The notes below the pieces were generated by a model. The model did no database searches. It was given only the letters and a program-made list of their open reading frames with translations, and was not told where the DNA came from. Both the position numbers and the translations under genes were made by a program. A stretch of DNA of 63,905 bases, the filler included, from Malassezia furfur (lineage: Eukaryota): assembly GCA_052055015.1 (NCBI GenBank). It is 7 parts of 7 records of this genome, joined end to end, with 100 filler letters (N's around TTAATTAATTAA, not from the genome) between each part and the next. Parts side by side here need not be neighbours in the genome. Positions count along the whole stretch, not along the records: positions 37,270 to 46,445 come from JBQJIT010000434.1; 6 more parts are not named here. The stretch is one strand, 5' to 3'. Within the stretch, counting starts at the first letter, position 1; every line of letters starts with the position of its first letter. This document shows, in pieces, positions 9,263 through 45,358 of the stretch.

Positions 9263-9362
9263 NNNNNNNNNNNNNNNNNNNNNNNNNNNNNNNNNNNNNN
9301 NNNNNNTTAATTAATTAANNNNNNNNNNNNNNNNNNNNNNNNNNNNNNNNNNNNNNNNNNNN
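9263..9362. other. Artificial contig linker N44-TTAATTAATTAA-N44
   Basis: Identical 100-nt spacer with stops in all six frames. Confidence 0.97.
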
Positions 9363-18592: not shown

Positions 18593-18692
18593 NNNNNNNN
18601 NNNNNNNNNNNNNNNNNNNNNNNNNNNNNNNNNNNNTTAATTAATTAANNNNNNNNNNNNNNNNNNNNNNNNNNNNNNNNNNNNNNNNNNNN
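18593..18692. other. Artificial contig linker
   Basis: Same 100-nt spacer. Confidence 0.97.
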
Positions 18693-27892: not shown

Positions 27893-27992
27893 NNNNNNNN
27901 NNNNNNNNNNNNNNNNNNNNNNNNNNNNNNNNNNNNTTAATTAATTAANNNNNNNNNNNNNNNNNNNNNNNNNNNNNNNNNNNNNNNNNNNN
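27893..27992. other. Artificial contig linker
   Basis: Same 100-nt spacer. Confidence 0.97.
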
Positions 27993-43123: not shown

Positions 43124-43799
43124 CTACGCCAAGGCGCTTTTCCACGCCACGTAGTCGGCCCACGTCACGCTGGTCTTGGTGCTGGTGTAGCGGTAGACGT
43201 GCACGGCGCGCAGCGTCGCGGCGGTGATCGGCCCATGCCACCCCGCCTTGCGCATGGCCGTCTCGATGGTCTCCTGCTGGGACCACCCCTGCGCACTGGC
43301 CACCTCGGGCAGGAAGGTGGCTGTGAGCTCCTCGCGCCCGTTCGCCGGGTCACGGAAGCGGATGTACACGCCATGCACGCCCAGGGTCCAGTCCAGGTAG
43401 TCCGCACACGGCTCAAACGGGCTCAACAAGCTCACCGAGCACTCGAGCCGCGGCGCTTCGTCCGCGGTGATCGGCGCAAAGCGGTGGTCGTGGAAGGCTG
43501 CCTGCCGCGCAAAGTACGCGAGGCCCGGCGCGAGGTCCTGCGGCGTGAATGTCCCGATGCAGCCGCGCAGGCGCGGCGTGCCGGAGGGCGCACCATCGCG
43601 CAGGCTCGGGTAGAGGTACCACGACACGAAGAGGCTCCTGTGGTCAGCGCGGCACGTACAGCTTCGCGTGCACGTCGGGGAACGGCACCTGCGCAGGCAC
43701 GGACCGGTGCGCCAGGTCGGCCGCTAGCACCTCGCAGCAGTAATAGCAGTGTTCGGCGCGCGCGACGTACGTCGCGTCTTCCTTTGCGGGCGCGTCCAT
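43124..43799 (-). CDS. AMMECR1-family protein; intron 43638-43659
   Basis: LFVSW, LRGCIGTF, D.RF.PI, GVHG..I.F, ATFLPEVA motifs. Confidence 0.9.
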
Positions 43800-43854
43800 G
43801 ACCGCCACTGGACACCGGCGCGGACGCACAGGCCCACGTGACCACGCACAGACG

Positions 43855-45147
43855 ATGCTCCGACGAAGCGTGGGCGCGGGCGCCCTGGGCGCGCTGCGTG
43901 CCGCGGTGCGTGGACCGCGGTGGGTGTCGACACTGCGCAAGATCGAGGCGGACCCAGATGCCGCGCGCGAGGTGCCGACGCCGCTCCTGTTTGTCGCCGC
44001 GCCCGCATGGACGGGCGGGAAGGATGCGCAGACGTACGTGGGCCGCTGACGCAGGCAATTTGCGCCGCTGCTCGCGCAGGTACGGCGCCATGGCTTTACC
44101 TCGCTGCTGCTCGACCTCGATGTGCCGCGCGGACCCCCGCGCGATGCCCTCGCGCGGCTCGAGGCCGAGATGGCGGCGACGCTGGCACACCCGCCGCAGG
44201 ACGTCGGACCCGTGCCGTTCCCCCCGGCGCTCGTGGCGCTTGGGCCGGTGTGTGCGGTGGCCGAGGCGTACGCGTCGTCGCACCCGCTGACCGCGCTGCA
44301 GCTCATCAACCCTCCGCTGTCGATGCAGCGTGCCGTCGAGGCCCACCCCGAGCTGTTTGGCGAGGCGCCGCTGCCCGAGTTCGACTTTGAGGCGCACTTC
44401 CCCGTGCGTGTTGTGTGGCTGCGCGAAGAGCTGGTGCGGCACGCGGACGCGGGCATCCCGTGGTACGAGGTGCACCGCATCGAGCACGCGCGCGAGGAAG
44501 AGGCCGACGCGAGTTTGGACCGCTACGCATGGGCGTCGATGGACGACGGTGCGGACGAAATGGTGCAGTGGCTCGAGGACGAGGCCGGCGTGTATGTCGC
44601 AGAGGGCTTAACGGCAGGTAGGCACGGCCAGGCAAGCGAGGGCCTCGCGGAGGCGGCGGCCGAAGGCGCCGAGGGGGCCGAGGGAGCCGAGCAGGCCGAG
44701 CGGGAGGCGAGCGCGGCGTACGTTGCGCCAGGTACCGTGCCTGAGTGGTTCGCCCGGGGTGAGTATGCGTTCGCGCCCGACAACTCCAAAAAGATGCCCG
44801 TCGTGCTGGACGAGCGCGACTTGGAGGAGCGGTTCATCCGCGGCTCCGGTCCCGGCGGCCAGGCGATCAACAAGCTCGCGACCAACGTTGAGCTGGTACA
44901 TACGCCGACCGGCATACGCATCACGAGCCAGCCGACGCGCAGTCGCGAGCAGAACCGCGTCGCGGCGCGGCGGACGCTGTCGCAGCGGCTCGAGTGGCTC
45001 ATCAAGAAGGACTGGGCACCGACGCCCCGCGGTGCATCGCGCGCCCTCGCCCCCAGCGTGCTTGCCTCCCAGTGGGACAAGGCACGGCGGCGCAAGGCAA
45101 AGAAGAAGAAGAAGCAGCGCCGGCGCGCCGCCGACGCCGCGCCGTAG
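43855..45147 (+). CDS. Mitochondrial protein with a degenerate alpha/beta-hydrolase-like domain followed by a GGQ release-factor domain (C12orf65/MTRFR-like); intron 44034-44054 and alternative intron 44592-44617/44621
   Basis: Arg-rich presequence; DLEERFIRGSGPGGQAINK....V.L.H.PTGI......TRSREQNR and a basic C-terminal tail. Confidence 0.7.
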
Positions 45148-45358
45148 CGCCGTAGCATCCTCCCGCCGGAGGCGCATAGTTCCCAGGTCCCACGTGCATC
45201 AATCCCCGCCGGCGCGGCGCGGCGCCGTGTTGCTCAACACGCAACGCGCCTCGCCNNNNNNNNNNCGGCGGGAGGATGCTACGGCGCTACGGCGCGGCGC
45301 GTTTTTGTGCCGACGACCCTGGCGAGGCGCGTTGCGTGTTGAGCAACACGGCGCCGCG
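45135..45358. repeat. Two interleaved perfect inverted-repeat pairs around a 10-N gap
   Basis: 45135-45168 is the reverse complement of 45266-45299 (34 nt); 45218-45255 is the reverse complement of 45321-45358 (38 nt). Confidence 0.9.

Follow-up and report, generated by a model that had tools for sequence, protein, structure and literature searches.

MTRFR/C12orf65 in human and Pth4 in yeasts are codon-independent mitochondrial GGQ rescue factors. They combine a GGQ-bearing RF-1 domain with a basic C-terminal tail and have no codon-recognition domain. Among alternative 3' splice sites, NAGNAG acceptors lie 3 nt apart, so that one residue is gained or lost, and AGs this close compete in the second splicing step. 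The passages on Pth4 in PMC7940416 and PMC3919214 describe it as related to C12orf65.

Two fungal genes described in PMC3597508 make two proteins each through splicing. SKI7/HBS1 of pre-duplication yeasts and other fungi uses a proximal and a distal 3' splice site of one intron to produce two distinct proteins linked to ribosome rescue or quality control; there the sites are far apart and both products retain the C-terminal domain. In PTC7 of Saccharomycetaceae, retention or removal of an in-frame intron gives two proteins.

The gene considered here (positions 43,855 to 45,147) lies in the window, a stretch of 63,905 nucleotides of the Malassezia furfur assembly GCA_052055015.1. It shares with MTRFR/C12orf65 and Pth4 the GGQ RF-1 domain, the missing codon-recognition domain and the basic C-terminal tail. 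It differs from them in two respects: throughout Ustilaginomycotina the GGQ domain follows, within a single gene, an alpha/beta-hydrolase-fold domain of ~240 aa, and in the window's lineage it would be out of frame in the default-spliced mRNA. As in SKI7/HBS1, proximal and distal 3' splice sites belong to one intron of a fungal gene, and the two products would be distinct proteins linked to ribosome rescue, with use of both sites being a candidate feature here. In contrast to SKI7/HBS1, the sites are 4 nt apart, the frame is shifted and a stop codon holds the second AG. Compared with NAGNAG acceptors, the 4-nt spacing flips the frame and so decides the presence of a whole domain. Unlike in PTC7, retention and distal splicing would both lead to the long form and default splicing to the short one.

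The 4-nt spacing, the frame switch and the stop codon bearing the second acceptor set the locus apart from SKI7/HBS1 and from tandem acceptors, and none of the papers listed by full-text literature searches dealt with this gene. Should both acceptors be in use, a shift of 4 nt in splicing would let a single fungal gene make two proteins, a compact example that is easy to test.

Gene Layout and Predicted Products

The start codon is ATG at 43855-57 on the plus strand, with coordinates re-read from the window sequence. The gene comprises the following features:

43855..44033, plus strand: exon 1, with the start codon, a presequence-like N-terminus and strand 1 of the N-terminal domain (N-domain); phase 2 at its end
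44034..44054, plus strand: intron 1, 21 nt, GTACGT...GCTGAC...CAG, with donor 44034 and acceptor AG 44053-54; fits the compact motif defined below
44055..44591, plus strand: exon 2, the remainder of the alpha/beta-hydrolase-fold domain, ...WLEDEAG plus GT; phase 2 at its end
44592..44617, plus strand: intron 2 to the proximal acceptor, 26 nt, with GTATGT at 44592-97, TTAAC at 44608-12 and the CAG ending at 44617
44619..44621, plus strand: TAG with two possible roles, as the stop (GTG TAG) of the proximal-AG mRNA and, through its AG at 44620-21, as the distal acceptor
44622..44720, plus strand: linker of low-complexity Ala/Glu/Gly with the GGQ frame open; not conserved between species (alignment A1)
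44721..45147, plus strand: GGQ (RF-1) domain, with a conserved N-terminal block ..PGTVPEWF.., a basic C-terminal tail and the stop TAG at 45145-47

Every coordinate and frame in the earlier note's description of the locus, tandem acceptors included, was re-derived from the sequence. The first 30 residues encoded by exon 1 include seven R/K and no D/E (script count). This N-terminus, shared by M. brasiliensis P0001 and M. furfur P0136, is presequence-like and was assigned as a putative mitochondrial presequence. Intron 1 contains an in-frame TGA (44047-49) supplied by its branch-point motif. Its removal joins ...DAQT to QFAPLL, matching P0001, and the close relatives P0008 and P0100 have ...DAHT joined to QFAPLL at this point.

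The products of each splice choice were computed with a script that joined exons by coordinate. Splicing to the proximal AG gives 239 aa ending in ...WLEDEAGV followed by TAG, without the GGQ domain, which is left in the +1 frame of this mRNA. Splicing to the distal AG removes a 30-nt intron, restores the frame and gives a 413 aa fusion with the GGQ domain; retention of intron 2 gives 423 aa, likewise with GGQ. Retention of both introns ends the ORF at 64 aa. The two AGs (44616-17 and 44620-21, 4 nt apart) are reachable from one branch point and set different reading frames, as expected of alternative 3' splice sites. One frame is open over the whole of 44050-45147 and ends at TAG 45145-47. 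Within it, GC content of the linker by codon position is 0.91/0.61/0.91, which fits coding sequence and weighs little in a triplet-like low-complexity run.

Intron 2 Among the Short Introns of the Window

According to Table 2 of PMC5389616, the curated M. sympodialis annotation counts 5,350 introns, which average 30 bp and are backed by RNA-seq in 99% of cases. Introns of Malassezia approach the lower size limit of spliceosomal introns. We defined a compact intron motif as GTANGT, then YTRAC, then the first AG, with a total length of <=50 nt, and searched both strands of the window. The motif occurred 20 times against 1.14 expected from 200 first-order Markov randomisations (sd 1.14, max 5). 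The introns that it defines measure 21-47 nt, and 15 of the 19 matches other than intron 2 connect open frames of >=46 codons on either side.

The distance from the branch-point A to the 3' end was 5 nt in five of the 20 matches, 6 nt in five, 7 nt in six, 8 nt and 9 nt in one each, and 10 nt in two. The proximal AG of intron 2, at 6 nt, is typical (modal 5-7 nt), and the distal AG, at 10 nt, falls within the local range. A rival AG <=5 nt away with a differing frame accompanies two window introns (31850 and 41325), and in these the longest frame comes from the first AG. Intron 2 carries the local donor, branch point and spacing, and it is very likely a genuine intron, because its position and phase are common across Ustilaginomycotina. 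The tiny intron proposed in the earlier note is supported by the motif excess, the 6-nt spacing and this shared seam position.

Identity of the Two Domains

The C-terminal part of the ORF (residues 251-357) matched the Pfam family RF-1 (PF00472) with 73.9 bits against a cut-off of 35, and its translation contains the GGQ motif in ..RGSGPGGQAINK.. (codons 44854-44862). A codon-recognition (PCRF) domain was absent, with no PF03462 match at E <=1, whereas bacterial RF1/RF2 relatives have PF03462. The best solved relative of the GGQ part is human C12orf65 (7a5h_C, E 2e-14), with 2rsm_A at 5e-14. Matches to ArfB were far weaker (E 2e-4 to 7e-4), and no ICT1-named chain was present among the 49 structure-chain matches of the GGQ part. 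Judged by these matches, the C-terminal part is a GGQ peptidyl-tRNA hydrolase domain of the C12orf65/MTRFR/Pth4 type, putatively mitochondrial, and the C12orf65-like label originally given to it holds on both the RF-1 score and the closest solved structure.

The N-terminal part was modelled through the orthologue P0008. An AF2 model built from a 54-sequence alignment reached pLDDT 92.3 and pTM 0.87 (a 10-sequence alignment gave pLDDT 49.4, too poor for use), and its last helix finishes at the junction. Foldseek with this model returned 164 matches at E <=0.001, which were alpha/beta hydrolases; the top matches were thioesterases, esterases and lipases with E 1e-5 to 2e-4, TM 0.41-0.55 and identity 9-17%. 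The predicted fold agrees with the hydrolase-like domain of the initial description.

No nucleophile elbow (G-x-S-x-G) or catalytic triad is conserved in alignment A1, where the elbow position, taken from the secondary structure of the P0008 model, follows the central strand with LGPVC, YGAAC, KGPAA, RHASC and similar segments and holds no constant Ser, Cys or Asp. We therefore describe the N-terminal part, at the level of its predicted fold only, as a non-catalytic-looking alpha/beta-hydrolase-fold domain and not as a hydrolase, because the elbow has no conserved nucleophile. The Pfam family DUF7368 gave 26.2 bits for the window ORF, under the gathering cut-off of 27, and 21.3 bits for P0008, the only one of 32 scanned proteins (mostly profile-search relatives) that matched at E <=0.01.

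Taxonomic Range of the Fusion and Its Seam Intron

The closest proteins, near-identical over the ORF in the case of M. furfur CBS 9595 (CBS9595_003909) and 90% identical in that of M. brasiliensis (MBRA1_003740), place the window in the M. furfur lineage. Both parts occur in one protein in 19 NCBI-named proteins of Ustilaginomycotina; beyond this subphylum, matches span the GGQ part only. The profile search, with 194 matches, recovered stand-alone relatives of the N-domain, ~205-250 aa long. All eight named matches from outside Ustilaginomycotina that were looked up (Suillus, Rhodotorula, Rhizoctonia, Crepidotus, Fomitopsis, Mrakia, Mycena and Sporobolomyces) are stand-alone N-domain proteins of 223-250 aa. 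These proteins of Agaricomycotina and Pucciniomycotina resemble the predicted 239 aa isoform in domain family (E to 1e-30), length and end point; they differ in being separate genes and are uncharacterised.

From these matches we take the halves to be encoded separately in other basidiomycetes and to have been joined in Ustilaginomycotina, where a phase-2 intron marks the seam. Many N-domain ORFs of Ustilaginomycotina terminate precisely at ...G[VLM], and Malassezia ORFs that read past the donor go on with G[LV]YV, the translation of a GTATGT donor. The phase-2 intron at the seam is, by this pattern, old and placed at the exact domain border across the subphylum. The fusion would tie an alpha/beta-hydrolase-fold family to mitoribosome rescue and provide a first functional hypothesis for the stand-alone basidiomycete relatives.

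Scanning genome contigs revealed no relative, and a metagenome scan yielded one locus, L001 (62% identity), from another Malassezia. Its intron is 23 nt long, from GTAAGT to CAG; when spliced it leads in frame into the GGQ domain and when retained it runs into a stop, TTG-TAA. The fusion is judged to be the ancestral product, because the L001 intron splices in frame and its retention stops translation. For orthologues, the earlier note had contemplated either separate genes or a kept CAGGTAG acceptor pair. In Ustilaginomycotina the halves are fused, and a stop of the N-TAG form directly after the junction recurs in M. globosa-like sequences and not in L001.

We also considered Ustilaginaceae N-domain ORFs ending in ...EVGV as examples of the short isoform. 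These were rejected: the ORFs lie on long genomic contigs with a separate GGQ ORF beside them, and the ...EVGV ending is a stop at the beginning of the unspliced intron.

RNA-Derived Sequences of Relatives

Logan contigs of RNA size (1.44-1.6 kb) from an M. globosa-like lineage encode a 250 aa protein with the ending ...EDEAGL, found as four 250-aa sequences on 8 contigs. The upstream intron is removed in them, and the genomic ORF P0122 reads through the same intron. A second ORF from this source, 208 aa long and present on 14 contigs, has an N-terminus equal to the +1 frame of the C-terminus of the 250 aa protein and reads over the junction and into GGQ. The 250 aa and 208 aa proteins have one contig size, 1468 nt, in common, and the M. 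globosa model MGL_4114 has the same junction.

Decoded from these two protein frames rather than from DNA, the M. globosa-like junction is forced to ...GGT CTC TAG R... The M. globosa-like mRNA thus has a genuine TAG stop, with GGQ in the +1 frame. Splicing to an AG that lies 4 nt past the junction would continue the protein with Leu-Phe-Pro... and bring GGQ into frame. The stop-at-junction arrangement with a second AG 4 nt on, proposed from the M. furfur DNA, is in this way forced by the RNA-derived ORFs of a relative. It poses a puzzle, as a conserved GGQ domain lies out of frame in these RNA contigs. N-TAG stands at the junction in two of the three readable lineages (chance 1/64 each). This layout is not general: L001 and annotated Ustilaginaceae obtain the fusion by simple splicing.

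In P0008, which belongs to a sister M. furfur lineage, intron 1 has been removed and the sequence ends in ...EDEAGV; around the donor the RNA is thus either spliced or heterogeneous. As proof of proximal-AG use it was rejected; a contig break at the donor would end alike. No separate M. furfur-type GGQ ORF was found in a further set of 49 protein matches, though a full-length proximal-spliced contig should yield one. Neither a distal-AG fused protein nor a presequence-plus-GGQ protein derived from RNA was seen for any Malassezia among 98 + 49 protein matches (38 of the latter 49 sequences examined); for fused proteins such absence is weak evidence, since assemblies keep the dominant path and drop minor isoforms.

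Proposed Mechanism and Alternative Explanations

Drawing on the sequence features, the fusion and its range, both folds and the equivalent M. globosa-like mRNA, we lean slightly towards a two-product model, in which proximal splicing yields the 239 aa protein and the distal AG or retention yields the fusion with GGQ. Following the rule that the first AG after the branch point is used, the proximal acceptor would dominate in M. furfur: a 26-nt intron would be removed, GTG-TAG would be written and the protein would stop at 239 aa. This product would be a complete fold comparable to that which other fungi make as a stand-alone protein. Given its strong conservation, the GGQ domain must be translated. 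Its frame has no ATG across the 159 codons before 44794 (script, window), and a start at ATG 44794 would lose the conserved ..PGTVPEWFxxGxYxF.. block (alignment A1), so the routes that remain for it would be the AG inside the TAG (30-nt intron, 413 aa) or retention (423 aa). We infer one or both of these as the source of the fusion, and either would place it behind the exon 1 presequence.

The strongest of the rival explanations, though unlikely in our assessment, is that the gene makes essentially only the fused protein, with the distal AG as the true acceptor or the 30 in-frame bases left unspliced and exonised, and the GTG-TAG isoform as rare noise. The public models of M. brasiliensis (P0001) and M. 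furfur CBS 9595 (P0136) treat intron 2 as coding and read through it; they do not count as independent evidence, because gene predictors favour long ORFs. The wholly open 44050-45147 frame, the in-frame length changes by which the linkers of three M. furfur-group lineages vary, and production of the fusion elsewhere (Ustilaginomycotina, L001) also agree with a single product, as does the distal AG, whose 10-nt distance to the branch point is found in 2 of the 20 motif matches. Against it stand an intact donor, branch point and CAG that match the 19 other local motif occurrences, the use of the first AG as a rule within the window, the stop-creating junction in M. globosa-like RNA contigs and the end of P0008 at the donor. 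It is improbable that the two domains are translated separately, with only the 239 aa protein made from spliced mRNA and the GGQ protein started independently, whether on an internal transcript, after reinitiation or by leaky scanning. Some public models are split in this manner (M. globosa MGL_4114, M. pachydermatis 166 aa, M. furfur GLX27 63 + 319 aa), the M. globosa-like +1 frame has ATGs 5' of the junction that open a basic peptide, and many Malassezia linkers begin with ATG. However, the window's GGQ frame offers no such start short of 44794, where the conserved block is lost; a start in the linker would give an acidic N-terminus and no presequence, and the ancestral form is fused.

Programmed +1 ribosomal frameshifting at the junction TAG, for which bacterial prfB provides the analogy of frameshifting at a stop, would join both ORFs on the dominant mRNA. 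The geometry agrees: in both clades a TAG comes right after the junction, and the GGQ frame relative to it is exactly +1. We nevertheless give this very little credence: neither GTG, the P-site codon here, nor CTC, its M. globosa-like counterpart, can re-pair in the +1 frame, a stimulatory element was not noticed, and a 4-nt acceptor shift is a simpler explanation of the same geometry. Equally hard to accept is the skipping of exon 2, which the earlier note had raised as a source of a presequence joined to the GGQ domain alone. The hypothetical 44033-44622 junction has agreeing phases and gives 234 aa in frame, but it would need an intron of 588 nt against the 21-47 nt of motif introns in the window, and this architecture occurs in none of the 98 + 49 protein matches. 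Taking that interpretation as a whole, the intron, the domain labels and the stop-at-junction layout are supported, and the skip from presequence to GGQ is unsupported.

Within the two-product model, a more specific reading, which we put forward tentatively and regard as doubtful, assigns the TAG the role of a divider, being both the default stop and an alternative acceptor. Most transcripts would then give the stand-alone protein, and a minority would carry the fusion, with the sole MTRFR-like domain, into mitochondria; AG-N-TAG after a phase-2 donor would have been kept or reinvented in two Malassezia clades. Acceptor choice might plausibly set the dose of the rescue factor. If this reading is true, choosing between acceptors 4 nt apart would split an anciently fused gene again at the level of its RNA, and would set that dose.

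Public Gene Models

Public gene models are unreliable at this locus. Entries for M. furfur conflict with one another, being given as 63 + 319 aa, 382 aa and 408 aa. In the CBS 14141 model P0100, the protein shows an odd junction at which GV is followed by ERRARRS...

Gene structure and divergent neighbour

Intron 1 of the hydrolase-fold/GGQ gene (44034-44054, 21 nt, GTACGT..GCTGAC..CAG) is near the known lower size limit of spliceosomal introns. Its removal agrees with both the M. brasiliensis model and P0008, the RNA-derived orthologue from a sister M. furfur lineage.

The gene forms a divergent pair with an AMMECR1-family gene (Pfam E 2.8e-39). The two ATGs are separated by just 54 nt, so that the promoter and 5' UTR space common to both genes is tiny. 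The 22-nt intron of the neighbour carries an acceptor pair, CAG/GAG, at its 3' end, with a spacing of 3 nt.

Features of the divergent neighbour
43124-43800, - strand: AMMECR1-family gene
43659-43638, - strand: intron of the AMMECR1-family gene
43801-43854: interval between the AMMECR1-family ATG and the ATG at 43855

Public gene models

Public models of the locus from M. furfur, M. pachydermatis and M. globosa conflict strongly with one another.

Public models of the hydrolase-fold/GGQ locus
P0099/P0125, M. furfur: locus split, 63 + 319 aa
P0100, M. furfur: 382 aa, odd junction
P0136, M. furfur: 408 aa, first intron wrong
P0158, M. pachydermatis: 166 aa, GGQ part only
P0201, M. globosa: 248 aa, start placed in the N-domain's +1 frame

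Hydrolase-fold family

The hydrolase-fold domain (43855-44591) belongs to an unnamed family (alignment A3), whose members in Agaricomycotina and Pucciniomycotina are stand-alone proteins of ~205-250 aa. That Ustilaginomycotina have the domain fused to a GGQ factor suggests that this family acts in mitochondrial translation or ribosome rescue. One fused protein, P0027, is recorded under the plant Cichorium endivia; judging by its near-identity to Moesziomyces sequences, it probably represents fungal contamination of the plant assembly.

Inverted repeats at the 3' end

Two perfect inverted repeats, arranged in the order A..B, A'..B', bracket a 10-N gap downstream of the gene, and the last codons and stop of the gene fall within the first repeat arm. 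There are two readings of the repeats: an artefact of assembly where scaffolds were joined, or a genuine structure of the 3' region.

Features of the 3' end
45135-45168 and 45266-45299: inverted repeat A/A', 34 nt, 100% complementary
45218-45255 and 45321-45358: inverted repeat B/B', 38 nt, 100% complementary
45256-45265: 10-N gap

Elsewhere, paired 44-N runs recur ~9.3 kb apart along the window (e.g., 9263-9362, 18593-18692 and 27893-27992) and look like deliberate masking rather than biology.
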